The notes: a model not told the origin generated them from the sequence alone. A DNA stretch of 64,000 nucleotides from an uncultured Gammaproteobacteria bacterium (GCA_964418775.1 CAYQNA010000004.1:14230-78229), one strand, 5' to 3'. Positions 3,710-27,869 are shown, numbered from the stretch's first letter. Numbers and translations are program-made.

Positions 3710-4810
3710 TCAGTCTATTTCTAAAGCATCCAAAAAAGCGCGGTGCCACTCGTTGGCTGGGTCGTATTTGCCCATCAAAAAGCGGTCCTGTTCCTGTGGG
3801 TATTTTTTGATAACCTCAAGGATGTCGTAATATCCATTCAAATACATAACGTCTTTGGTCCAGCACAATCCCCGACTTTGGCCAGTGGTGCCGCGGAAAA
3901 TTTTCTCTACCCGTGTCCAGGCATCAGCAGCCGGGTTTTCGGCAGCACTGAGATATTCAGTAAAAAATTCAAACAATTCACGGAATGTGCGCGGCTTACC
4001 ATCCACACCTTTAACCAGCGCCACACCAAGATAATTCTGAATACTGGGCCAAAATGCTTGCGGATAGACTTGTGACTCTTCGTATTTCCCCAAACCCTCG
4101 TCCCCTTTTATATAGTGGTCAAGGCCGAGCGTGAGTAATTGCAAATTTGTGTTCTCCGCATTTTTGCGACGGATAATGTGCACACCGACTTCGTGACGCA
4201 CGAGCGCTTCCAAATGCGTACGACTAATGCGACGTGATTGTGGAATAAATAATGTTTTTGTTTCTTGATTAAGGTGAACAAATGCATTGGTGTTTTCCGT
4301 ATCGCGCACAATATTCCAACCCTCAATTTTGTAATCAACAAACGCGGCCCGAAAACGCGCTTCAATTTCATCAGCCTGGACATATCCCAATTCTACGGGC
4401 GGTAATTTTTTAAAGAATTCATTTTGATTAATTATTTCTGAGGAGTAATCCCCAAATTCTTGCACACTAATTTTGGCAAACATGGCGTCATCTCCCCTAC
4501 TCACTGCTTCGAGCAAATCAACGTGCGCCATTTTTTCGGCAAGAACACGCACATACGCTTCTCTCACCCACTCATTTTTCTCTTCGCGTTCAATTTCACT
4601 CAGCAAATTTTCCAACTGCGATTTTTTCTGCGCAAAATTAAAATCGCGCAATTTTGGATAGGTAAAATACGGATTTTCAATCTCGCCACGCAAAAATAAA
4701 TCGCGCTGCTGCGTACGTTCAGCCGGATCAAGCACTAACAAATCTACATACGAAATATGGGCAATCGCCGTAAACTTAGCAAACCAATGCGTATCCAAAT
4801 AAGACTTCAT
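3710..4810 (-). CDS. HExxH-containing protein resembling the DUF1704 / 'QEGLA-motif' family (putative zincin-like hydrolase)
   Basis: 366 aa with HEVGVH and a DEGLGKYEE motif. The family assignment is from memory of motif patterns only. Confidence 0.4.
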   Translation of the reverse strand: MKSYLDTHWFAKFTAIAHISYVDLLVLDPAERTQQRDLFLRGEIENPYFTYPKLRDFNFAQKKSQLENLLSEIEREEKNEWVREAYVRVLAEKMAHVDLLEAVSRGDDAMFAKISVQEFGDYSSEIINQNEFFKKLPPVELGYVQADEIEARFRAAFVDYKIEGWNIVRDTENTNAFVHLNQETKTLFIPQSRRISRTHLEALVRHEVGVHIIRRKNAENTNLQLLTLGLDHYIKGDEGLGKYEESQVYPQAFWPSIQNYLGVALVKGVDGKPRTFRELFEFFTEYLSAAENPAADAWTRVEKIFRGTTGQSRGLCWTKDVMYLNGYYDILEVIKKYPQEQDRFLMGKYDPANEWHRAFLDALEID

Positions 4811-5018
4811 ATGTCAAACAGTATATTTGATATCCATGCATAAGTCCACAAACAAAAAAGCACCACCGAAGTGATGCGTTTTTGTCTTCGAGTGATGGGT
4901 ACACTCGTGACACTTTCATGCTCTCCTTATTGGCAAGAAAGGGTAAAAGAACGGTGACACTCCCAACCCATCAACTGGCCCATACGGTTGCCAGTTGTGG
5001 AAGTGAAACTATGTGCGC

Positions 5019-5564
5019 TCAGTCGAGCCTTTTCCTTTTGACTATACGCTCGTACTCCTTCCTTAAAGCGCACCGCGCACGATTAAGACGAGATTTGACT
5101 GTACCGATGGGGACGCCAAGTCGCTTCGCAATATCTTGGTAATCCCTATCGGATAGAACGAGGATCGCTTGGCGCTGCGGAGGAAGTCTCTTTAGCGCTA
5201 CGGACACCCACTCTTCCATATCGCCGCAAAGACCTTTGTCTTCCAAGACACCCCCGGCACTCCTCACAACTAGCGCGGTGTCGACCACCTCGAACCGTAC
5301 CCGCCTGCTTTTAACGTAATTAAGACAGGCATTTCTAGTGATCGTGGCGATCCAAGTTGTCAATGAACCCCGAGATCCGTCGTAAGTCGACAACGCTCTG
5401 TACACCTTAAGGAATACAGTCTGCACCAGGTCTTCAGTGTCAGCGCCTATACGAAAACGCCGACAAATCGTAGTTACCAGACCGACATACCCCAGGTATA
5501 GCTTTTCAAAAGCCTTCTCGTTGCCGTCCACACAAAGCCGAACGAGCTCAGCTTCATCCAACAT
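5019..5564 (-). CDS. RNA polymerase ECF-type sigma factor (second copy)
   Basis: Sigma region 2/4 motifs (…LVQTVFLKVYRAL…; …LSDRDYQDIAKRLGVPIGTVKSRLNRAR…). The start is placed at the internal Met (MLDEAELVRL), which has an AGGGGG RBS 7 nt upstream. The longer ORF reaching 5705 adds a non-sigma N-terminus and overlaps the promoter. Confidence 0.75.
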   Translation of the reverse strand: MLDEAELVRLCVDGNEKAFEKLYLGYVGLVTTICRRFRIGADTEDLVQTVFLKVYRALSTYDGSRGSLTTWIATITRNACLNYVKSRRVRFEVVDTALVVRSAGGVLEDKGLCGDMEEWVSVALKRLPPQRQAILVLSDRDYQDIAKRLGVPIGTVKSRLNRARCALRKEYERIVKRKRLD

Positions 5565-8043: not shown

Positions 8044-8049
8044 CTTTAC

Positions 8050-8094
8050 TAGAGCCACAGACCAGGATTGAACTGGTGACCTCGTCCTTACCAT
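8050..8094 (-). repeat. 45-bp direct repeat of the 3' part of tRNA-Thr(GGU) (positions 32-73 + 3 nt), intron-less; putative attR of the integrated island
   Basis: ATGGTAAGGACGAGGTCACCAGTTCAATCCTGGTCTGTGGCTCTA on the minus strand. It is identical to exon 2 plus the last 5 nt of exon 1 of the tRNA at 14623..14893. No tRNA 5' half is attached. Confidence 0.7.
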
Positions 8095-8292
8095 CAAACA
8101 ACCATACCCTGTTTCTCTCTTTTATGGCTAAGATAAAAGGAAATTTTGGGCACTTTGGCTATTTGCTGACTAGAACCAGATGACCTGTTCCCTGCCGCTG
8201 CAAACTCTTTTTTAAACCCCGTTAAATTGGGGTTATCGCAGCAAGATTTGTCTTGAATTAACAGTTTAATCATACCACAAACATATTCAGGG

Positions 8293-9057
8293 TCAAGCAG
8301 GTATTGAATCAACAAGCTCTTTAATTGCAGCAGTCTTCCAAACAAACCCAATATCAGATTCTTTATTTATTCGTCCGCTGTATATCCCAACAAGTCGCAC
8401 AGATTCCTGACTAGTGTTTAAAACCACATTTCCGTCTTCATAGCGCACCATCCCTCCTCTGTAGTAGACAATTACAGGTGACCCAGATTGCCCTGGCCTT
8501 GTGCGAGAATCAATTAAAAATAAAGGCAAGTCACGGTAGTTAATCGGAGGCTCTGAAGCTACAAATCCTGTAACCCAGATTGCAAATAAGCCACCAGCGG
8601 CTTGAGCGAATGGAAAACCTATGATATTTAATCGGTCTGCTGGCCCATACGCAATTGCAGGCGAGGCCTCTTCCAAACTATACGGAATAATGCTCACCCC
8701 TTCTAAATCAGAGAGTGGTAGAGCAACAAAATCAGCTCGCGAGCCTAATACTGGGTGTTCAATCCACCGCGGCACCTCATTACTGTCGAATAAGGGCTCA
8801 ATTTTTTCAATCCAAGAGCCTACCCGCGCAGTATGGTTATGGTAAATCAGAAACTCATTAGGGATCGCACCTGTTGTAGATAGTAGCTCACCAGTATCTT
8901 GATGACGACCAGTTACATTATGGCGGTTAGTAATAAAGTAAGGCTTTTGCGCGGAAGAATAAACTAAAAAACCTGTACCAGAAGAAATCTCCTGCCCATT
9001 AAAGCGGGTCCTCAGGAAAAGTGACATTAATGAATACTGACTAATAACAGTGGACAT
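8293..9057 (-). CDS. Trypsin-like (chymotrypsin-fold) serine peptidase
   Basis: GTGFLV…H…D…GQSGSPV catalytic-triad context (GDSGGP-like serine motif). No obvious signal peptide. Confidence 0.6.
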   Translation of the reverse strand: MSTVISQYSLMSLFLRTRFNGQEISSGTGFLVYSSAQKPYFITNRHNVTGRHQDTGELLSTTGAIPNEFLIYHNHTARVGSWIEKIEPLFDSNEVPRWIEHPVLGSRADFVALPLSDLEGVSIIPYSLEEASPAIAYGPADRLNIIGFPFAQAAGGLFAIWVTGFVASEPPINYRDLPLFLIDSRTRPGQSGSPVIVYYRGGMVRYEDGNVVLNTSQESVRLVGIYSGRINKESDIGFVWKTAAIKELVDSIPA

Positions 9058-9089
9058 AGATTTTATGATTGCAGACTAAACCTAGTTTT

Positions 9090-10034
9090 TTACAGAAGAT
9101 TATCAAAGGTAATCCGATTTACATCGTCAAGCATAGCCCTGTTTGGAAGTCCACGCAAGTAGGCACACGTCATATTTATGTCTGAATGCCCGAGCAATTG
9201 CCTTAACTTGAATATGTCAGTTCCAGAATTCAGGAGGTTAATAGCAAAGGTGTGACGAAACTTATGTGGGTTAAACTTAACACCACTTTCTCTGACGACC
9301 AAAGCAATAAAGTGCTTAAAACCGTGCATAGTAAACCTCTTATCTTCACCACTCACGACCCATAAATAAGGCGTGGTATAACGTCCTTTTCTTCGCTCGA
9401 CCAAGTACTCCTTTAGAGCAACTAAAACCTTTTGATTTAGAGGTATCCAGCGGTCACGTTTTGATTTTGAGCTTTCGGCCCTAACCCTTAATTCCTTTTT
9501 ATCCAAATCAATATCAACCAGGTGGATTCCAATAAGCTCGCCTTTTCGGATTCCACAATTAAGAAGCACAGACAGAATGGCTAAATTTCTTCGCTTAATA
9601 AGGGTATTTTTCCACTTTATGTTAAAGGAGACTGCATTAAATATGCTTTCTATACTCTCTTTTGGGATGAACTCACGCTTAGAGTAAATCACTTCTGGGT
9701 ACGGAATCCCAGAAAAAGGCCCATTACTGATATGTCCCCGCTCCCTAAGCCAGTCAAAAAATTTATTAAGTTTACTGCGATATGTAGCGACCGTTGAATT
9801 TTTAATACCCTTTTTAATCTTCCCCCTACCTACCCTACGTTCTCTTTTTTCTAGAGTACGAAAAAAATCAATCATTTTAGGCGGCGTGAGATCTGCCAAT
9901 TCTAAATCTGGATAAATTTTTAAAAGAAGCGTGAAACAGGCCCGATACCCCCTCAGGGTTTCCTCTCGCAACTTCTCGGCATAACGGCACTCCTCAATAA
10001 ATTCCTCAAAAAGCTGACTAATAGTCTTACTCAT
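9090..10034 (-). CDS. Tyrosine-type site-specific recombinase/integrase
   Basis: C-terminal catalytic motifs HKFRHTFA…LLGHSDINMTCAYL (R-H-R-Y) and an N-terminal SAM-like core-binding domain. Confidence 0.85.
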   Translation of the reverse strand: MSKTISQLFEEFIEECRYAEKLREETLRGYRACFTLLLKIYPDLELADLTPPKMIDFFRTLEKRERRVGRGKIKKGIKNSTVATYRSKLNKFFDWLRERGHISNGPFSGIPYPEVIYSKREFIPKESIESIFNAVSFNIKWKNTLIKRRNLAILSVLLNCGIRKGELIGIHLVDIDLDKKELRVRAESSKSKRDRWIPLNQKVLVALKEYLVERRKGRYTTPYLWVVSGEDKRFTMHGFKHFIALVVRESGVKFNPHKFRHTFAINLLNSGTDIFKLRQLLGHSDINMTCAYLRGLPNRAMLDDVNRITFDNLL

Positions 10035-10157
10035 ACAAAAAAGTTAATAATTACATTTGTATGAATTGAGGATAAAACAAAAAACAAACGTGTGCTAACG
10101 TTTGCTGAGTAAAATATTGGCTTATTTTAGATAAGAAACAGTACCCTGTGAGTAACT

Positions 10158-10946
10158 TTAGGAAACTTTTTCAGATTTCCATCTTAAACAGGCGCTGGAG
10201 TAGCGCTCCAGAGTAATAAACTCACCTATGTCAGAAACACCATTGTGCTGCAAATCGTAATAACACTGACGAATATAGGCCCATACTTTCTCAGGGGATT
10301 TATTTTCAATTTTACGGTTACGCTTTGGCAGTCTGTTTCTGTGTTGTACTAAATAACGATAAATACGGTCACCATCTACTGTGAAATCTGGGTTACGAAC
10401 CTTGATACAGGCTTCCAGAAATAGATAGCGCCGAGTACCATCGGCTTCAATTATGAGCTCGTCACTACCACGTCTATAAATACCTACCCACTCTTTAAGA
10501 TACAGAGCAAGATCGTCTTGAGCAGACTTATTTTTTGCAGTCTCTGTTCTGGTGTCCACACTATCATTTCCTGTGTTTTCATAGCCCAAAAGCAATGTTT
10601 CCAAAACCCGCTTTTTTACTCCAGAAAACAAAACGAGCTTTTCTAGTATTTCGCTAGAATACGGTATTTTTTGGTCTAAAATTAAATTCTTTTTAAGAGT
10701 GTCAGCTCCTGAATTAAAGTAATCTTTCCAGACCTTAGTTTTTGGCCCTAAACCCATACCCTTAAACACGTTTTCAACTTCTGCATCTGTTTTTACAAGC
10801 TTTAAAACAGTGTGGTAGATATCTTCTTGAATTTCAGGCAGATCAAGCGGTAATGCCGCTACATTGGGCATTTTAGACTCCAAAAAATAACTGCAAAAAT
10901 TCAGATCCTCTAGCAACTCTCCCAATCTTTTAGCGGTGTAATTCAT
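10158..10946 (-). CDS. Hypothetical protein (island cargo)
   Basis: 262-aa ORF with coding-like composition and no recognisable motifs. A degenerate att-core-like sequence lies immediately upstream (10948..10968). Confidence 0.5.
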   Translation of the reverse strand: MNYTAKRLGELLEDLNFCSYFLESKMPNVAALPLDLPEIQEDIYHTVLKLVKTDAEVENVFKGMGLGPKTKVWKDYFNSGADTLKKNLILDQKIPYSSEILEKLVLFSGVKKRVLETLLLGYENTGNDSVDTRTETAKNKSAQDDLALYLKEWVGIYRRGSDELIIEADGTRRYLFLEACIKVRNPDFTVDGDRIYRYLVQHRNRLPKRNRKIENKSPEKVWAYIRQCYYDLQHNGVSDIGEFITLERYSSACLRWKSEKVS

Positions 10947-11029
10947 ATGACCTCATCTTACCAAAACCACCCCAAAAATCCAGAGTAACCAAAAAGAAGG
11001 CTTTCGGCCTTCCTCTTGGATCCCGCACC

Positions 11030-11830
11030 TCAGTTTTGAATGGTTCTTAGGATACCATTACCAAAATAAAGATAACTACCCAAACCATAAACCCACTGTT
11101 CCTCCACGCTACCAGAACTAATTGTTTTATTAATATCAGTAGGCCGACCCCAGGCAGCAACCACTTGCTCCTGTGTCATTCCAATCCTGACCTTTTTGTT
11201 AGCTACGGCTCCACAAATATCCCTCTCCCAGCCTGGGTGTTCGGCACACACCTTACCTACTTTCTCTTGCTCGGCATTTTTCTTAGCAATTGTGGCTGCC
11301 TGTTCTTTGCAAAATGGATTTTGCGACTTTTTAATGCACGCGCAAAAGCCATTCCCATCCTCATTCCCCAAAATGCTATAGTTTTCGGTAGAACTAGCTA
11401 GGGATACCTTTTTAAGCACCTCTGAGGTGGTGTATTTAGAGTTAGGGTCAATAACACACACCTGGTCAATAGGTTTTTTAAGTGGTGATGTAACCCAGAT
11501 AACAAAATCACCCTTTTTCCAAAACGTAGAAGTAGCGCCTGACAGGGTACCGTTCCCCATCTTCCTTGAGGTTATCAGCGCATCTAACCCCACGTCTGAC
11601 GTAGGCGCACCCAATATTTCCTCTGCCTTGCTGCGATCAACATCAAATAGAGCTTTAGCGTCAAAAGCAGGTGTTTCTAGTGAGGCCACAAAATTCGCTC
11701 GGTCAGCTTTATTACTTTCATTAATAAATAGGCCTAGTATATTGATTATCCCAAAAAATCCAATCACGCAGGCTACTATAATACCGCAGGTTGAATGCTT
11801 CTTAGTAGGCGTACCAGCTTGCTGCTCCAT
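11030..11830 (-). CDS. Membrane-anchored hypothetical protein with Cys-rich middle region and BLIP/SmpA-like C-terminal motif (GMTQEQVVAAWGRP)
   Basis: N-terminal TM helix (IIVACVIGFFGIINILGLFI) and multiple Cys residues. Confidence 0.5.
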   Translation of the reverse strand: MEQQAGTPTKKHSTCGIIVACVIGFFGIINILGLFINESNKADRANFVASLETPAFDAKALFDVDRSKAEEILGAPTSDVGLDALITSRKMGNGTLSGATSTFWKKGDFVIWVTSPLKKPIDQVCVIDPNSKYTTSEVLKKVSLASSTENYSILGNEDGNGFCACIKKSQNPFCKEQAATIAKKNAEQEKVGKVCAEHPGWERDICGAVANKKVRIGMTQEQVVAAWGRPTDINKTISSGSVEEQWVYGLGSYLYFGNGILRTIQN

Positions 11831-11849
11831 ATAAAAAAGTTAAATATAA

Positions 11850-12040
11850 AATTGAAAAACAAAAAAGGCCCACCGTACTTTGACGGCACCCTTGCGGGGG
11901 CCCAGCACCGTTTCCAGTGCTGACTGCAACAACAATATCAAAGACGGTGAAGCCGTCTCTATGTTGTTGCAGTTTCTCGACCGTGCCTGGGGCTACTCGC
12001 CCCTAGGGTTAGGTCATATAAATTGTGCTTATAGACTACG
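11850..12040 (-). other. Structured non-coding block (multiple hairpins incl. 11-bp stem CTGCAACAACA…TGTTGTTGCAG) flanked by two minus-strand terminators; candidate small RNA or recombination site
   Basis: No ORF. At least four consecutive stem-loops are visible. There is a GC-clamp hairpin plus U-run at its 3' end (minus-strand sense, ~11866..11905). Confidence 0.3.
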
Positions 12041-12066
12041 ACAATGACATCTAAAAGTCAAATTAA

Positions 12067-12090
12067 TAAAAAAACCTTGCGAAATGCAAG
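12067..12090 (-). terminator. Intrinsic terminator (CCTTGC-ATTTC-GCAAGG + U8) downstream of the NTase/2TM gene pair
   Basis: Perfect 6-bp stem with an 8-U tract on the minus strand, 23 nt after the stop of 12113..12769. Confidence 0.5.
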
Positions 12091-12112
12091 GCTGATCTTA
12101 AAACACAAGCGA

Positions 12113-12769
12113 CTAAAAATGACGGTTAATTTCTTTGCTATGAAATTTGCAAATCAATTGACCGTGTGTTTTTCTATCACGACTGTCGTTATAATAATCC
12201 CCCTCCAGCCTCTTACCATTTACATCTTTAAAAAACTTTAGTTTGGCGCTCCCACTATGGGTCCTCATACTCAGATTACTCCTAACAGTGGATGGTTTAT
12301 TATGATAAATATAAAAAATTGACCAGACATCAAATTCATCTTTTCCAAAATTTGCTACGACACTATACGAGCAGGATTGCTGTGTATATAAATTTACTAA
12401 TATATTGGAAAAATTTTGAGTCACCTCCAAAAAACCATCATACTTATTATTACCTGACGGATCAGAAAAACTAGAAATAATTTCACACTTATACCGTCCC
12501 CCAATATATGGGATACGATGAAGCCAGCAAAAAGGCCTGAGACGCCATAACAACTTTTCGTGGGTTTTTAAAATTAAGAACAGCAGCACTGGCACTGTGA
12601 GAGGTTGAATAAGTCCCCACTGGACTAGCTGCTCAACCCAACCAAAATGGACCATACTTAACACAGATTCTGTTAAATCTGCGACATAGTTAAGCGGATA
12701 AATCAAAAACAATATTGCCAGTATGTAGAACTTATAAATTGGATTTTTTGTTTGCATACTAACGTACAC
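12113..12769 (-). CDS. Small membrane protein: two N-terminal TM helices + ~130-aa beta-rich C-terminal domain; candidate Cap15-like (2TM-β-barrel) CBASS effector
   Basis: TM segments IYKFYILAILFLIYPLNYV and LIQPLTVPVLLFLILKT. It overlaps the upstream NTase gene by 11 nt (an operon). Confidence 0.45.
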   Translation of the reverse strand: MYVSMQTKNPIYKFYILAILFLIYPLNYVADLTESVLSMVHFGWVEQLVQWGLIQPLTVPVLLFLILKTHEKLLWRLRPFCWLHRIPYIGGRYKCEIISSFSDPSGNNKYDGFLEVTQNFSNILVNLYTQQSCSYSVVANFGKDEFDVWSIFYIYHNKPSTVRSNLSMRTHSGSAKLKFFKDVNGKRLEGDYYNDSRDRKTHGQLICKFHSKEINRHF

Positions 12770-13637
12770 CTAAAGCTTTTTTCCATTTATCTTCTGCAAA
12801 AGTCACCGAACGCGCCTGATAAGCGTCTATTCCATCCCGAAGTGAAAGAGCTAACCTTGTTTCAAAGTTAGAACGTGCATTCGCGGGCCAATTAGACAAA
12901 ATGTTTTCGTGTCCGCAAACACTTAAAACAGAACCACCCGGCACGTCAAGTTTTTCCAGAATAGAATGGGAAATTCTTAAAAAAGAGCTTGGAGGGTCAC
13001 TCAAAAAAAATCTATTTTCTGCCCCATAAACCAGCGCTTCAATTTTGTGAGAGGAAATAATTTCATTTTTCGGCCCAAAATGATTGATGGCCCAGTTTTT
13101 GAACATACGGACCATTGGTTTATACCTCTCCCCAGTATCCTGATTTTTTTGTACACCGTTCTTATAGTGAATACGCGGGCGACTAACCTTTTCCACTGCA
13201 TCTCTAAAGGAGTAAATACAGATAGGATCAGCTGTGTGGTCAGGAGAAACCATAACAGCAGGAACCACATCAACACTAAAGGCACCACTAATTTTTATAC
13301 ACTTGTCACCACGTTTTACTGTCCAAGAATAACGTTTTTGATCCCCTAAGACAGTTTCAATCTCAGAAAATATCTGTTCCCAATCTATACTCTGCGGGAA
13401 ACTGTAGCCTGAGTGAACTCCGCTAAAGGTGTCAAGCCTAACAGCAACAATATCAACGTCGTTAATATCAGAAATTGCTGTATCATTTTTATACGAACCC
13501 TGAAGGAAGGTATGGTGGGTCGTTCCAAGAAGCTCTTGGATATAATTCTGCAAAATGGCGACACTGCTGATTTTTGCAGGTGTAGGCCCTGCTGTGTAGG
13601 GCTTGACTAAGTGATCGGGTATCTGGTGAGCTGGCAT
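12759..13637 (-). CDS. cGAS/DncV-like nucleotidyltransferase (CD-NTase / SMODS-like), putative cyclic-oligonucleotide synthase
   Basis: Pol-beta NTase signature GSYKNDTAISDINDVDIV (GS…[DE]h[DE]h), followed about 60 aa later by the third acidic motif SVDVVPAV. The protein has about 290 aa with a C-terminal helical region. Confidence 0.55.
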   Translation of the reverse strand: MPAHQIPDHLVKPYTAGPTPAKISSVAILQNYIQELLGTTHHTFLQGSYKNDTAISDINDVDIVAVRLDTFSGVHSGYSFPQSIDWEQIFSEIETVLGDQKRYSWTVKRGDKCIKISGAFSVDVVPAVMVSPDHTADPICIYSFRDAVEKVSRPRIHYKNGVQKNQDTGERYKPMVRMFKNWAINHFGPKNEIISSHKIEALVYGAENRFFLSDPPSSFLRISHSILEKLDVPGGSVLSVCGHENILSNWPANARSNFETRLALSLRDGIDAYQARSVTFAEDKWKKALGVR

Positions 13638-13679
13638 ATTTATTTAAAAATCCTTACCTCATCATACACCTTTTTTAAT

Positions 13680-14600
13680 TTAAATCAATGACTGGGAATT
13701 AAGCGGGTGTTTCCCTATCTGTCCCCTCAAGTGCTCGGCGCTCGCCGCCAGGTAAATAGTGGTTGTCTTAATGTCACTGTGCCCCATCATTTTTGACAAC
13801 GAAAAAATATCGCACCCACCCTCCAGCATTAAAGTAGCGAATGTGTGGCGTAGCTTGTGAATTCCAAACCTAAGGCCAGACGCGTTCATTATATTTCTGG
13901 TCAGAACTTTTAGGCCGTTTTCAGTAAAAGCGCAATCACGATTAAGTGAAGTAAAGAACTCGGGGCATTTTTTATTAAGGCGTTTACGCTCTGCCAGATA
14001 CTTGGTCAGGCTTTCGGCCAAGGTAAACGAAATTGGAATAACACGGTCCTTACCACCCTTGCCCTGGTTTACGAACAGGGACATATTTTGCAGATCAACG
14101 TCCTGGTATTTAAGGCTTAACAACTCTTTGCGGCGTATGCCTGTAAACAAGAACATTGAAAATATGGCGTGGTTGCGGTAACGCTGGTAACGATATTTGT
14201 ACGGGTAATTATAAGCCACCTCCAGCAGTCGCATTGCGTCCTGTTTAGTTAGCTTGGGTGGAAGTTTTTTATTAATCTTAGGTAACTCAATATCGTCCAT
14301 TGGATTTTTGTCCAAAAATTTATTTTCAACACACCAGCGAAAAAATACCACCAATGTTTTGTGGTAAGTCACAAATGAATTTGCCGACCATTTCTTTTCC
14401 GTCCGACCCCAAAAAAAGTAGTTACGCGTATTGTCCTCTGTCACCTCCTCTATCTCCTTAATGCCCGCGTGGGCGGCATACAACTTAATGACCTTCCGAT
14501 ACCTGACCAAGGTGGTCTGGCTAAACCCGCGAAAATACTTTGAATACTCGCAAAACCTTTCCCCCAATAAAAAAATGTCCATAAAAACAAAATATCGCAA
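13680..14600 (-). CDS. Tyrosine-type site-specific recombinase/integrase (adjacent to tRNA-Thr attachment site)
   Basis: HKLRHTFAT…MMGHSDIKTTTIYL catalytic motifs. It is paralogous to the integrase at 9090..10034. The start could be Met7 (14582). Confidence 0.85.
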   Translation of the reverse strand: MRYFVFMDIFLLGERFCEYSKYFRGFSQTTLVRYRKVIKLYAAHAGIKEIEEVTEDNTRNYFFWGRTEKKWSANSFVTYHKTLVVFFRWCVENKFLDKNPMDDIELPKINKKLPPKLTKQDAMRLLEVAYNYPYKYRYQRYRNHAIFSMFLFTGIRRKELLSLKYQDVDLQNMSLFVNQGKGGKDRVIPISFTLAESLTKYLAERKRLNKKCPEFFTSLNRDCAFTENGLKVLTRNIMNASGLRFGIHKLRHTFATLMLEGGCDIFSLSKMMGHSDIKTTTIYLAASAEHLRGQIGKHPLNSQSLI

Positions 14601-14622
14601 ATCGCTGCGATATTTCTAGTAG

Positions 14623-14893
14623 AGCCACAGACCAGGATTGAACTGGTGACCTCGTCCTTCGTGTATACCTCTATTTCGTCCCCAGAGGGCTTTATAAGAG
14701 GGCTAGACTGTATCTTAGGCTTCCTTACGGGTCAGCCTCCCTTGTCAGTCGTTCGGGCGTAAAATACGCCACGGTCTTGGCCATTGCTGGCTATTAACCG
14801 TTATTCGGGCTTCACTGTTAGATTTCTCAGACAGTGGGCACATCTGTGTGCAGATATACCATGGACGCGCTCTACCAACTGAGCTACTGCGGC
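14623..14893 (-). tRNA. tRNA-Thr(GGU) interrupted by a 198-nt group I intron between anticodon-loop positions 36 and 37
   Basis: Exon 1 is GCCGCAGTAGCTCAGTTGGTAGAGCGCGTCCATGGT (14893..14858). Exon 2 is AAGGACGAGGTCACCAGTTCAATCCTGGTCTGTGGCT (14659..14623). Joined, they give a canonical 73-nt cloverleaf with anticodon GGT. Confidence 0.7.
14660..14857 (-). ncRNA. Group I self-splicing intron (small, Azoarcus/cyanobacterial tRNA-intron-like)
   Basis: The 5' exon ends in U and pairs as a U•G wobble in a 10-bp P1 (GGUAUAUCUG / CAGAUGUGCC). J8/7-P7 reads AAGATACAGTC (consensus AAGATATAGTC) with a compensatory GACTG/CAGTC P7. P2, P8 and P9 hairpins are present. The intron ends with G. Confidence 0.6.
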
Positions 14894-15006
14894 ATTGAAT
14901 TGTACGGACTTTTTAACCTGTCGCCCGCGGCCATATTTAGTTGGGAACAGGCCATATGTCTTGGGGCATTTCGCTAAAATTAGCCACGAAATACCACTTT
15001 ACATAC

Positions 15007-15054: not shown

Positions 15055-15152
15055 GAAATCCTGAGTGTCGTGCCGAGCTTGCTCGAGCATGACCGAAGGA
15101 TGAGCCGCAGCACGAAGTGCAGCGGCGACAAGGGCCTGGACCCTTTCTGTCG

Positions 15153-15226
15153 TGCGCGCCGAGGGATTCGAACCCCCGACCCTCTCGGTGTAAACGAGAT
15201 GCTCTAACCAACTGAGCTAGGCGCGC
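15153..15226 (-). tRNA. tRNA-Val(TAC)
   Basis: GCGCGCCTAGCTCAGTTGGTTAGAGCATCTCGTTTACACCGAGAGGGTCGGGGGTTCGAATCCCTCGGCGCGCA. The anticodon loop is TTTACAC. Confidence 0.85.
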
Positions 15227-15315
15227 TTAAAGTGTCAGTATTATAGGAAATCCCCAGAAATAAGTCAACCCCCTATTTTAAACCCCAAATTCTGGTATAC
15301 TATGGCCACACCCCT

Positions 15316-16809
15316 ATGGAATACCGGCAACATCGTGAACGGATTAGTGAATTTACCGACTCAGAATACCTGGGGAAAACTACCCAGGACATCTTGAAGC
15401 ACGCGTACTACGGGGCCGCATCTTTAGCAACTCTAGAGGAAAGTCAAAATAATCCAGGCGAAACCGAACGCTATGCTCGTACTTGGATTAGGATCGACAT
15501 TATGGCTTTATTTAATTATGGCTCAGGCAAAACAGGTTTAACGCTATGCACAGAAACCTGGTCCCAACCCGCCATCCAGGCAGGCTGGGAACAATTATTC
15601 AATGATGAGAAAATTCTCTATTCACCTCCCCTCACCCCCGAATTTGTCTGGGAAAATGTCACTCATAATTCTGAACTCCTGCAGCACTTCCCTGGTGATT
15701 TTGCGGAACAACTGCTTAGGGCCCACGTTGATCACATGAATAAACTGCAGGGGGAGTTTGAGGTCAATGAACTACCCACAATAATGACCGAGGTGGACGA
15801 AAAAATAATTCGCGCGATTAATAATCAGATTCTACCCATCACGATTGATCAATGGCAACACATTAAAGATAACACCAAGATCATTGTAATGGATACAATT
15901 AAAGGCGAAGAGATTGGGGGTAATGCCAATGGACCGGTAATCTCAATTACTTCGCAAGCATCTTTAGCCGAAAAGACTCATATTGCAATTCACGAATTTA
16001 TCCACCGTCTGAATGGCAGTATCATCAAAAAGACCACGACCACTGGCACCCCCAAATACGGTGACCCAGAAACAGACATTGATTATAACAATGTTCGCAG
16101 CGGATTATTGTTTACGACCCCATTCTATCGAACACCCAAACGGCAATGGATTAATGAGGCTGTTACCGAAGATACGGCTTTAGCAGTCGACAACCAAGAA
16201 TACAGTGAGTACTACGAGGCTGAGCGCCAGTTACTTGAGCTTCTCGTACAATCACTTGGGCCTTCTAGCCGAGAATTGTTGCGCACAGTTTATTTTGAGG
16301 ACCCGGGAGTTGAAGCAGAGAAAAACCTCACAGAGTATCGCGCTTTAACCCGTTTGGTTTTGGAAAAACTAGGCCCCGGTTTTTTAAATAATTTGGAAAA
16401 ATTTATTCATGGCCAACGGGGCAATGATGGGACCACCGTGGATCCAAGTACAGCCGCAGAAATTGCCGCCAAAAAATGGCAAAAGTTGGGTCTACATTTT
16501 CCTGAGTATTTGACAGAGTGGTGCAGACAACAGGGGGAAATCACCCAACTAGCCCTAGGCCTGATTGAAAGCGTTAAAACAGAGAACCCCGAGGCGCTTA
16601 GTAAGCTCGATAAATATTCCTCCCCACATGCATACGAAGAGGTATGGAAGACATATTTTAAGGCAAAAATCCCAAAACCCTCACAGTACCTTACTGCCAC
16701 CCTACATGATTTAGTTATCAAAAAGCTAACTTACACAACAACCCGTGCAGCTTACCGTACGAAATTTGGTATTGAGCCCAAAGATCCGCTCACTGACTAT
16801 ATTGGGTAA
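15316..16809 (+). CDS. Hypothetical protein with HExxH zinc-metallopeptidase motif (IAIHEFIHRL)
   Basis: 497 aa with a single HEFIH motif in a hydrophobic helix context. No signal peptide or TM helix is seen. Confidence 0.5.
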   Translation: MEYRQHRERISEFTDSEYLGKTTQDILKHAYYGAASLATLEESQNNPGETERYARTWIRIDIMALFNYGSGKTGLTLCTETWSQPAIQAGWEQLFNDEKILYSPPLTPEFVWENVTHNSELLQHFPGDFAEQLLRAHVDHMNKLQGEFEVNELPTIMTEVDEKIIRAINNQILPITIDQWQHIKDNTKIIVMDTIKGEEIGGNANGPVISITSQASLAEKTHIAIHEFIHRLNGSIIKKTTTTGTPKYGDPETDIDYNNVRSGLLFTTPFYRTPKRQWINEAVTEDTALAVDNQEYSEYYEAERQLLELLVQSLGPSSRELLRTVYFEDPGVEAEKNLTEYRALTRLVLEKLGPGFLNNLEKFIHGQRGNDGTTVDPSTAAEIAAKKWQKLGLHFPEYLTEWCRQQGEITQLALGLIESVKTENPEALSKLDKYSSPHAYEEVWKTYFKAKIPKPSQYLTATLHDLVIKKLTYTTTRAAYRTKFGIEPKDPLTDYIG

Positions 16810-16828
16810 ACAAGATGATCTAACTAAC

Positions 16829-17728
16829 TCAGCTTTTTGGCTTATTTTTAGCTTTTTCAGCCGCGTATTCTTCCTTAACTTCTTGCCAAAACAACCGAGC
16901 GCGCTGCTCGTTTTGCCCCACTCCAAACCGACGCAACATTGACACCTGGACTGGAGTTAAGGCAATTCCCGCATCCTGCAAATCAAAATACCCCCGGTCA
17001 TTGGTATCATAAAATGGATTTCGGGGATCACGCTGTGCCTCGGCCAACAAGTCTGGATTCTGCTGGTAGTACTCGTTTAACGCTGCCTCGGTATTCCCTT
17101 GTGTTTGCAGCTCTGCCCATGCGCCTGGCGGCAAATATTCAATTACTGATTTGGCTTCGACCACAGGCACATCCACATACCCCAAGTTCCAGGCCACAAA
17201 TTCGTTTACTAAAAATTCCTGGGCTGCCGGGGCACCATCTTCGCGATTTATTGTTTGATACAAAGTTTCGTACGTTGGATCGACTGCAAACAACCAGTTC
17301 GCAATTTTTTCTTCACCGTGCGCCTGAATAAGCGCGGTCGTTAATTCACTTTTTTCTTGGTTGTCAAAAAAATCCCACTGCTGATGTGTTAATTCGTGCG
17401 CAATTTTACGGACCACCGTTGATTCTTTTCCCTGCAATGAATGTTCGTAATACGCCATTACCCCAAATTCAGGCGCATCAGGTTTCTTGCGCCCATCACG
17501 AGAATGTGTGTTTACATACGAAAAACCATCGCCCGCCTGATTTCGGTACTCGATCACCGGCAATCCAAGCGCCTCCACTTCACGGCGCTCCTGGTGTGAT
17601 TCTGGCTCCGAGTCAGTGTAATACGACTCAGTCTCTGTTTTGTCACTGTGCTCAGCGCGCGCCTCGCGCCCACCCATCATCATTCCGGCCACAAACGCCA
17701 AGCCACTGCGCCAAAATTCACGGGGCAT
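16829..17728 (-). CDS. Putative secreted zincin-like metallopeptidase (HELTH motif; DUF4157-like AHELTHQQ signature)
   Basis: The N-terminus is signal-peptide-like (…GLAFVAGMMMGGREARA). It carries a VVRKIAHELTHQQWD motif. Confidence 0.45.
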   Translation of the reverse strand: MPREFWRSGLAFVAGMMMGGREARAEHSDKTETESYYTDSEPESHQERREVEALGLPVIEYRNQAGDGFSYVNTHSRDGRKKPDAPEFGVMAYYEHSLQGKESTVVRKIAHELTHQQWDFFDNQEKSELTTALIQAHGEEKIANWLFAVDPTYETLYQTINREDGAPAAQEFLVNEFVAWNLGYVDVPVVEAKSVIEYLPPGAWAELQTQGNTEAALNEYYQQNPDLLAEAQRDPRNPFYDTNDRGYFDLQDAGIALTPVQVSMLRRFGVGQNEQRARLFWQEVKEEYAAEKAKNKPKS

Positions 17729-17731
17729 ATT

Positions 17732-18448
17732 TTATTTTGACACTTCGACTTCGGCCGCAGCGTTAAGTTCGATTCCCGGGAACTGAGTTTTTAAGTCTGC
17801 TAATTTTTTTTGCAAACCCTGTTGAACATACCGCGCTTCGGCACTATCTGCCATACCAGCCTGGCGAAAACCGCGTAAAGTGCGCAACATACTATCGGCT
17901 GTAGTTAGCTGCAAATTGACTCGTTCACGCATTAGGTTAAGTTGGGCTGGATTAGAGACTTTTTCCGTTAACCAATCTGGAAAACCACTAACCTCGCCAA
18001 AAGCCATTGTAGTCGCGCCTGATTCAGCACTTGAGTTAAACTCCGCGGTCCATTCTGTTTTATCACCAGTAGTTTCGGAATACAATTTTGACTGTGTTAG
18101 CACTTCGTCACCAGGCTGTCCTGGGGTTGGATCTTCCAGTAGGACTATTTTGGTGGCTACGGTGTCTACGTTTACACCCTCTGTCGATTCTTGTTCGTGT
18201 TTTTGGAGAACAGCCACCCGACCACCTTCGAAATTTTTATCAATCTTCTCTACCCCCGCAGTTGCTTCGGCCGATGGCGGCGCAGCCTCGGCCCGACCAG
18301 CAGCAGACAAACCAATGGTTAAAACTAAGGTTGCCCAAACACCCTGTGCCCGTTCACGTAACGCCGACAATAACGATGGTTCTTCGGCACCGGATTCTGG
18401 TCGCGCCTTAAAATTACGTGCTTCTTCGGGGATAAATTGTTCAGACAT
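17732..18448 (-). CDS. Membrane-anchored hypothetical protein (single N-terminal TM helix, extracytoplasmic domain)
   Basis: TM segment VWATLVLTIGLSAAG. The stop is 4 nt before the start of the HELTH protein, suggesting co-transcription. Confidence 0.5.
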   Translation of the reverse strand: MSEQFIPEEARNFKARPESGAEEPSLLSALRERAQGVWATLVLTIGLSAAGRAEAAPPSAEATAGVEKIDKNFEGGRVAVLQKHEQESTEGVNVDTVATKIVLLEDPTPGQPGDEVLTQSKLYSETTGDKTEWTAEFNSSAESGATTMAFGEVSGFPDWLTEKVSNPAQLNLMRERVNLQLTTADSMLRTLRGFRQAGMADSAEARYVQQGLQKKLADLKTQFPGIELNAAAEVEVSK

Positions 18449-27513: not shown

Positions 27514-27600
27514 GGAGAGATGGCTGAGCGGTTTAAGGCGACAGTCTTGAAAACTGTTGAGGATGCAAGTCCTCCGTGGGTTCGAATCCCACTCTCTCCG
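27514..27600 (+). tRNA. tRNA-Ser(TGA), type II
   Basis: GGAGAGATGGCTGAGCGGTTTAAGGCGACAGTCTTGAAAACTGT…GGGTTCGAATCCCACTCTCTCCG. Confidence 0.85.
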
Positions 27601-27624
27601 CTTGGTGCACATTGACAATTCACT

Positions 27625-27711
27625 GGAGAGTTGGCTGAGTGGTCGATAGCAACAGTTTACTAAACTGTAGTCCCTTTACGGGGACCGGGGGTTCGAATCC
27701 CTCACTCTCCG
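27625..27711 (+). tRNA. Type II (Ser-like) tRNA whose anticodon loop reads TTACTAA, i.e. anticodon ACT (unusual A34)
   Basis: GGAGAGTTGGCTGAGTGGTCGATAGCAACAGTTTACTAAACTGTAGTCCCTTTACGGGGACCGGGGGTTCGAATCCCTCACTCTCCG. The anticodon stem is a clean 5-bp ACAGT/ACTGT. Confidence 0.6.
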
Positions 27712-27743
27712 CGAAAACAGGCAAAATCACCAAAAAACACCAT

Positions 27744-27828
27744 GGAGAGGTGTCAGAGTGGCCGATCGTGCAGCTTTGCTAAAGCTGTGTTCCGCAAGGA
27801 ACCGCGGGTTCGAATCCCGCCCTCTCCG
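27744..27828 (+). tRNA. tRNA-Ser(GCT), type II
   Basis: GGAGAGGTGTCAGAGTGGCCGATCGTGCAGCTTTGCTAAAGCTG…GGGTTCGAATCCCGCCCTCTCCG. Confidence 0.85.
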
Positions 27829-27869
27829 CACATTGTCAACGCACAATTTAAACCTTAAGGGTAACCACT

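Follow-up and report, generated by a model that had tools for sequence, protein, structure and literature searches.

A clade E CD-NTase and Cap15 gene pair, a probable type I-B CBASS operon, on a tRNA-targeting island of a Magasanikbacteria-like bacterium

Here we present an analysis of two adjacent genes in a stretch of 64,000 nucleotides (nt) of DNA (CAYQNA010000004.1:14230-78229; hereafter the window, from whose first letter all coordinates are counted). The two genes very probably form a type I-B operon of the cyclic-oligonucleotide-based antiphage signaling system (CBASS), in which a clade E cGAS/DncV-like nucleotidyltransferase (CD-NTase), referred to below as the cyclase, is combined with a Cap15 membrane effector, as cargo of an integrative island of ~6.9 kb in the chromosome of a Magasanikbacteria-like member of the Patescibacteria, or Candidate Phyla Radiation (CPR). 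The pair is a further member, in a CPR-centered sublineage, of a system kind that is already known and experimentally characterized, and the understanding of CBASS itself is unchanged by it. Its interest lies in the host: a complete abortive-infection CBASS would be a recurrent, horizontally mobile cargo in ultra-small, host-dependent Patescibacteria rather than an oddity, and the pair provides a concrete, testable two-gene system for a group in which few defense systems ("very few", PMC12366544) have been identified to date.

The cyclase and its effector

A first-pass annotation of the window, made by inspection of the sequence, had placed here an open reading frame (ORF) of 292 amino acids (aa) and a second one of 218 aa. 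Both are present and intact in the ORF list, the former at 12759–13637 and the latter, read from a GTG start, at 12113–12769, each on the minus strand. The features of the pair are as follows:

12759–13637, minus strand: CD-NTase, clade E-like (CdnE), 292 aa, from the ORF list, family searches and fold
12113–12757, minus strand: Cap15/S-2TM-beta effector, 214 aa, start ATG 12757, with two transmembrane (TM) segments and a Cap15_CD_rec beta domain
13661–13688, minus strand: sigma-70-like promoter match TTGATT-16-TATGAT, a consensus match only (9/12)
12073–12093, minus strand: intrinsic-terminator-like hairpin and T-run, a consensus match only, 20 nt past the effector stop

The effector probably starts at ATG 12757, which gives a protein of 214 aa without overlap; this start is preferred because the NCBI call of an identical protein (P0121) is 214 aa long. 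The ATG lies 1 nt after the cyclase stop (junction GGT GTA CGT TAG T ATG), with AGGTG ~9 nt upstream of it. The 11-nt overlap between the genes that had been proposed earlier is found with the alternative start, GTG 12769, and is replaced by a 1-nt spacer with the probable one. The promoter-like site is located between the stop of the neighboring integrase and the cyclase start, and the terminator that had been credited to the pair was recovered, as a consensus match, in the hairpin and T-run at 12093-12073.

The cyclase contains the Pol-beta-type active site pattern G[S/G]...[D/E]x[D/E]...D in the form of G47 and S48, D60-V-D62 and D123, the first two elements within GSYKNDTAISDINDVDIV at residues 47-64 and the last within SVDVVPA at residues 121-127, with a spacing of 61 residues from D62 to D123. 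All five residues are invariant in two alignments of relatives (26/26 and 120/120), which upholds the initial reading of a pol-β triad of the CD-NTase/SMODS type. In the profile search that had been suggested for this protein, the sole Pfam matches at E<=1 were SMODS (PF18144), with 30.2 bits over a gathering score of 26.5, and DncV-like NTFase, with 18.4 bits; MNT, aminoglycoside, Pol beta and PAP families were all absent at that threshold. The protein also matches 36 PADLOC 'Cyclase' models (best E = 8.6e-26). A database search returned an identical NCBI protein (P0001) and 252 relatives, and precomputed annotation places PF26305 on P0001 and on all of the best 120 of the 252 relatives. PF26305 is named CD_NTase_C in the output of another tool and corresponds to the cGAS/DncV C-terminal helical domain; the UniRef name of one member reads 'cGAS/DncV-like nucleotidyltransferase C-terminal helical domain-containing protein'.

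Structure comparisons point to clade E. A family profile searched against PDB sequences matched 6E0K/6E0L at 1e-30, 6E0M-O at 2e-29, and 7X4F, 7X4C and 7X4A at 9e-24 to 3e-19. The AlphaFold (AF2) model of the cyclase, built from 26 sequences with a predicted local distance difference test (pLDDT) of 93.7 and a predicted TM-score (pTM) of 0.89, has a helical C-terminal lobe with helices at 154-289. When this model was searched against the PDB with Foldseek, the top 50 hits were CD-NTases without exception, the best being RmCdnE (R. marinus), LpCdnE (L. pneumophila), EmCdnE (E. meningoseptica), EfCdnE and ClCdnE, at TM-scores of ~0.70-0.74 over roughly 300 columns and a sequence identity to these known CdnE structures of just ~19-24% in the Foldseek alignments. 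In both the profile and the fold searches, clade E enzymes rank first, before CdnD, CdnB, CdnC, CdnG and DncV. By sequence and modeled fold, then, we assign the 292-aa protein to the clade E CD-NTases (CdnE), and its family membership and intact catalytic residues would make it a synthase of cyclic oligonucleotides.

The effector is, by its homologies, a member of the Cap15/S-2TM-beta family, the assignment that the first-pass annotation had offered from domain architecture. Residues 85-208 match Pfam Cap15_CD_rec (PF18153) with 82 bits against a cutoff of 31.2 (E = 5.5e-23), and the matches to the PADLOC '2TM' Effector models (best E = 1e-33) reach into the N-terminus. A word-indexed search with the effector gave two proteins; its family was assembled from the genes adjoining cyclase homologues. 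The single sequence matched the Cap15 crystal structure 7N34 with E = 1.9e-9, and a profile of 27 effectors matched it with E = 1.9e-29 and 129/131 residues covered. Sequence homology thus predicts a C-terminal beta-barrel, the effector domain aligning across the whole crystallized barrel of Cap15 (PDB 7N34/7N35). The two N-terminal TM segments, which are likewise common to Cap15 and had been predicted at first pass, appear as two peaks of the Kyte-Doolittle plot within residues 1-70, at ~20-24 and 57-60, each reaching 1.5 or more; past residue 85, the highest value is 0.64. In the 27-effector alignment, the segment between the two TM helices is longer in CPR effectors than in non-CPR members.

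Conservation of the pair, system type and host

A genome scan of GTDB species representatives with the cyclase yielded 74 loci, 20 of which have a cyclase identity of at least 46% and are termed close loci here. In 15 of these 20, the cyclase is followed by a co-directional Cap15 homologue at a distance of -3 to 78 nt; among the five exceptions, two (L008 and L017) are truncated by the end of the contig. Relatives in the tier of 31-41% identity, from Myxococcota, Actinomycetota and Chloroflexota, have the pair as well, and in the called genes of relatives a Cap15_CD_rec gene comes directly after a gene with SMODS and CD_NTase_C. Conservation as a pair, on which the initial proposal had been made to depend, therefore holds in close and in distant relatives. 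At L006/L012, from a metagenome-assembled genome (MAG) of Peribacteria, the genes found downstream of the cyclase in place of Cap15 are those of an IS1595 transposase and a P63C-domain protein.

Searches of all island genes and 10 flanking ORFs against Pfam and PADLOC gave no match to Cap2, Cap3, HORMA, TRIP13, type IV or other CBASS accessory genes. We assign the pair to type I-B because genes for Cap2, Cap3 and HORMA are absent nearby and the architecture is that of CdnE with Cap15, in agreement with the type I designation made at first pass; the PADLOC check that had been recommended for the island likewise returned both a Cyclase (E = 8.6e-26) and a 2TM Effector (E = 1e-33).

The window encodes GlyRS, AsnRS, SecY and a VirB4-like ATPase. 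Named relatives of GlyRS at 77-83% identity are almost all from Candidatus Magasanikbacteria, Parcubacteria or Patescibacteria, and on this basis the host is, by its protein sequences, a Magasanikbacteria-like member of CPR/Patescibacteria, as had been suspected; the contig encoding a 95%-identical GlyRS (P0123) stops short of the island site. The accompanying expectation, that CBASS would be unusual in such a host, was not borne out, the closest ~120 cyclase relatives being overwhelmingly from Patescibacteria MAGs. Likewise, Patescibacteria MAGs, from Magasanikbacteria, Paceibacterota, Adlerbacteria, Nomurabacteria, Peribacteria and 'Saccharibacteria', account for nearly all of the close loci and of the named cyclase relatives with 41-63% identity. 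Going by these sequences, the CdnE-Cap15 pair is common in CPR and not exceptional there. When 1.84 billion cluster representatives were searched exhaustively, the entire CPR cyclase clade formed one 50%-identity cluster (P0025), and the lineage is a compact one, since just 16 clusters reach E<=1e-30 to the cyclase. A scan of viral contigs found cyclase relatives of 26-32% identity only, with no sign of a phage-borne CPR clade. According to a groundwater survey, the density of defense systems per Mb is high in CPR; CBASS is one of the accessory families in its list, without being singled out for CPR (PMC12259885).

Predicted mode of action, nucleotide and rival explanations

The closest functional precedent is the two-gene type I-B CBASS of Staphylococcus schleiferi, Ssc-CdnE03 with Cap15, which has been tested experimentally and acts by abortive infection through membrane disruption (PMC10686824). 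It has the same domain content as the window pair, a clade E CD-NTase and a two-TM Cap15 without accessory genes. Its trigger is cabRNA and its product 3',2'-cGAMP (PMC10686824), whereas the window cyclase belongs to a CPR-centered subfamily. By homology to the tested systems, the window cyclase would be kept inactive until phage infection, upon which it would make a cyclic dinucleotide at the metal site formed by D60, D62 and D123. The cyclic dinucleotide would bind the C-terminal beta-barrel of the membrane-anchored effector; the effector would then oligomerize and breach the cytoplasmic membrane, and the infected cell would die ahead of the maturation of phage progeny. Ligand-induced oligomerization and membrane disruption are thus predicted from homologous effectors, and protection against phage from homologous two-gene systems.

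The identity of the signal can be approached through the three specificity lids defined for CdnE enzymes, in which an Asn in lid 1 reads the acceptor uracil, lid 2 is Asn/His, and an (R/Q)xW motif in lid 3 reads the donor pyrimidine (PMC10442399). Mapped by profile alignment to RmCdnE, the lids of the window cyclase are Ser152 (lid 1), His157 (lid 2) and Asp283-Lys-Trp285 (lid 3). The lid 2 His and the lid 3 Trp are shared with the structurally characterized enzymes LpCdnE, EfCdnE and ClCdnE (PDB 7X4x; PMC10442399), all three of which are encoded with Cap15 (PMC10442399), and with RmCdnE and EmCdnE (PDB 6E0K-6E0O); they are also features of the family at large, with His in 112 of 120 relatives and Trp in 115 of 120, the R/Q position being variable. 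In contrast to the cyclic di-pyrimidine CdnE enzymes, which have a lid 1 Asn and (R/Q)xW, the window cyclase has Ser152 and Asp283, and for this reason a di-pyrimidine product is not expected of it. Lid 1 is Asn in 108 of the 120 relatives and Ser, the residue of the window cyclase, in the other 12. Most CdnE relatives thus probably use a uracil acceptor and the window cyclase probably does not; it may take a purine at the acceptor site. The Asn/Ser split hints at signal diversification inside one CPR lineage, on which this polymorphism would constitute a natural experiment.

Several points weigh against the interpretation of the pair as a defense operon. The SMODS score of the cyclase is barely over its threshold (30.2 vs 26.5), and the scores for NCBIfam CBASS_cyclase_a, CBASS_cyclase_b and DS2_2_antiphage (26.7, 57.8 and 59.6 bits) are under the respective cutoffs of 200, 200 and 350; because these equivalog scores fall so far under, we regard the cyclase as a divergent protein of a related but distinct subfamily. 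The structure model of the effector, built from two sequences, reached a pLDDT of 48, too low to be of use. Three evaluable close relatives (L012, L015 and L029) have a cyclase and no detectable Cap15, and these loci, together with L006, suggest decay or effector exchange. Finally, the argument for a defense function of the CPR CdnE-Cap15 lineage is one of homology, and homologues of Cap15 can signal inversely, as in the case of OptE (PMC12657218), with a sign that the sequence does not fix.

This last point leads to the first of three other explanations, to which we give a very small share of the probability. If signaling were inverse, the cyclase would be constitutively active, its nucleotide would hold the 2TM effector off, and phage-encoded nucleotide sponges or nucleases would deplete the signal and release the effector. 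Such is the arrangement of Panoptes, where the mCpol synthase OptS is paired with OptE, an S-2TM-beta protein and close homologue of Cap15 with the opposite signaling sign (PMC12657218). The effector family and the two-gene operon are common to Panoptes and the window pair, and the window sequence holds nothing that fixes the sign of regulation. The synthases differ, however, that of the window being not an mCpol protein but a SMODS CD-NTase by both Pfam and Foldseek, and every tested pair of CD-NTase and Cap15 is ligand-activated (PMC10686824; PMC10442399).

Just as improbable is a role of the pair chiefly in the interest of the mobile element, in which, as a module of addiction or exclusion, it would stabilize the island or block competing elements and take no part in phage defense. 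In favor of such a role, every context of the pair is a mobile one, with integrases, a serine recombinase or tRNA-adjacent sites, and a backbone of IntA, CdnE and Cap15 is kept in the nearest relative island (L096, below). In relatives, the pair can also stand about 220 nt or less from various tRNA genes, or adjoin a serine recombinase or restriction-modification genes. Islands typically carry defense systems, so this context does not discriminate; moreover, an antitoxin-like partner is absent, close cyclase relatives were not found on the viral contigs scanned, and the tested homologous systems defend against phage (PMC10686824).

Least credible of all is a cyclase outside CBASS, of another minimal nucleotidyltransferase type (MNT, aminoglycoside, Pol beta/PAP), which the first-pass annotation had named as an alternative, or a pair that is an inactive relic: the near-threshold SMODS score and unreached NCBIfam cutoffs would fit, but they are outweighed by the absence of MNT, Pol beta and PAP matches at E<=1 in Pfam, the C-terminal helical lobe and full-length match to the CdnE fold, the invariant catalytic residues, the two intact ORFs and the conservation of the pair across many CPR species.

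The mobile island and its surroundings

The island that carries the operon extends from ~8095 to 15006 and is inserted in a tRNA-Thr(GGT) gene. Its other features are as follows:

8047–8094, minus strand: attR, displaced anticodon loop and 3' half of the resident tRNA-Thr(GGT), intron-less, followed by its terminator
8293–9057, minus strand: trypsin-like (Trypsin_2) protein; PADLOC PDC-S45, E = 6e-17; phrog_7688, E = 1.5e-26
9090–10034, minus strand: IntB, second Xer-like integrase
10158–10946, minus strand: 262-aa protein without assigned function, island cargo
11030–11830, minus strand: 266-aa TM protein, island cargo
11885–12015, minus strand: LOOT RNA (RF03000), full length, 75.9 bits, with its own terminator at 11888-11871
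13680–14582, minus strand: IntA, Xer-like tyrosine integrase, probable ATG 14582, the ORF extending to TTG 14600
14622–14893, minus strand: island-borne tRNA-Thr(GGT) with a 198-nt insert (14660-14857) after the anticodon
15007–15054, minus strand: attL, remnant 5' half and anticodon loop of the resident tRNA-Thr(GGT), divergent past the core

Mobility and tRNA targeting are documented by the tyrosine integrases, the tRNA-derived direct repeats and empty sites. The repeat is 43 nt long (42/43 identical), with copies at 8047-8089 and 14617-14659, the latter containing the 3' half of the island-borne tRNA-Thr. In L084 and L089, two contigs from metagenomes, tRNA-Val, an intact tRNA-Thr(GGT) and the distal flank of the window form one uninterrupted stretch, and an in silico join of the 5' remnant with the distal fragment restores a valid tRNA-Thr(GGT). 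In a further contig (L088), an intact tRNA-Thr(GGT) adjoins an integrase 37% identical to IntA. The GC content is 37-40% inside the island and 45-50% outside it. On the minus strand, the order at the integrase end is tRNA-Val, the 5' remnant (15054-15007), an identical second 5' half (14893-14858), the insert, the 3' half (14659-14622) and the integrase. The mobile island with an adjacent integrase (13680-14600), as annotated at first pass, is therefore real, and integration at a tRNA stands as well; the target, however, is tRNA-Thr(GGT), and the intact tRNA-Val at 15152-15226, minus strand, upstream of the tRNA-Thr remnant, is not the boundary.

The nearest relative island (L096) comprises, in order, IntA (74%), CdnE (63%), Cap15 (52%), variable genes, IntB (58%), a variable gene and an attR-like fragment, with its integrases at 65-952 and 4432-5370; its variable cargo gave no defense or informative family matches. 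The retention of IntA and IntB as a pair on both islands suggests a two-recombinase element. The two integrases of the window (13680-14582 and 9090-10034) are ~30% identical to each other. A model of two islands in tandem was rejected, there being no third att copy between the integrases.

The resident tRNA-Thr(GGT) is not restored by the island, and the sole complete copy is the insert-bearing one adjoining the integrase. In intron mode, ARAGORN reports this gene as tRNA-Thr(ggt) i(37,198), with a valid tRNA as the spliced form. The 198-nt insert has strong structure (z = -3.8) and ends that agree with U|...G|; within it, a UAAGAUACAGUC element and its flanking helices resemble, in our reading, the P7/P8/J8-7 core of group I introns. 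Rfam searches with 801 nt and with 226 nt were negative for Intron_gpI at E<=10, and a group I identity was not confirmed, the resemblances in boundaries and motif being what remains; the insert is best described as intron-like in sequence.

The LOOT RNA lies ~100 nt downstream of the effector. Of 25 related CPR loci, three (L009, 2967-3085; L023, 11210-11322; L029, 798-916) likewise have a LOOT copy in the vicinity of the cyclase, within 3-5 kb. Each copy is followed after 22-63 nt by a same-strand ORF, and the ORF types are unrelated (unknown, HNH/VRR-NUC and T5orf172). Where LOOT lies with respect to the pair, and on which strand, also varies, and on these grounds it was rejected as a CBASS component; its distribution suggests an RNA of CPR mobile islands. 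The trypsin-like protein, encoded at the island's distal end, may be a second defense cargo, to judge by its PADLOC match.

These observations can be assembled into a wider scheme, which is speculative and on balance doubtful: the pair would be conserved cargo of a new, CPR-restricted family of mobile elements with two Xer-like integrases, whose insertion destroys tRNA-Thr(GGT), whose own copy with a self-splicing 198-nt intron compensates for the loss, which carries LOOT RNA, and in which the lid 1 switch from Asn to Ser gives non-cross-reacting signals among co-circulating islands.

Beyond tRNA-Val, at ~15281-18409, three ORFs (497, 299 and 238 aa) have no match in PADLOC and PHROGs, nor, for the 497-aa ORF, in NCBIfam. 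This region is replaced by ~730 nt in the empty-site contig L084, from which we infer that a second variable region flanks the tRNA pair. Farther along the window, three tRNA-Ser genes stand in tandem at 27514-27829 on the plus strand. An A at position 34 is unusual for a bacterial tRNA-Ser; the middle copy of the three, with the loop TTACTAA, has the anticodon ACT (A34), beside a normal GCT copy.

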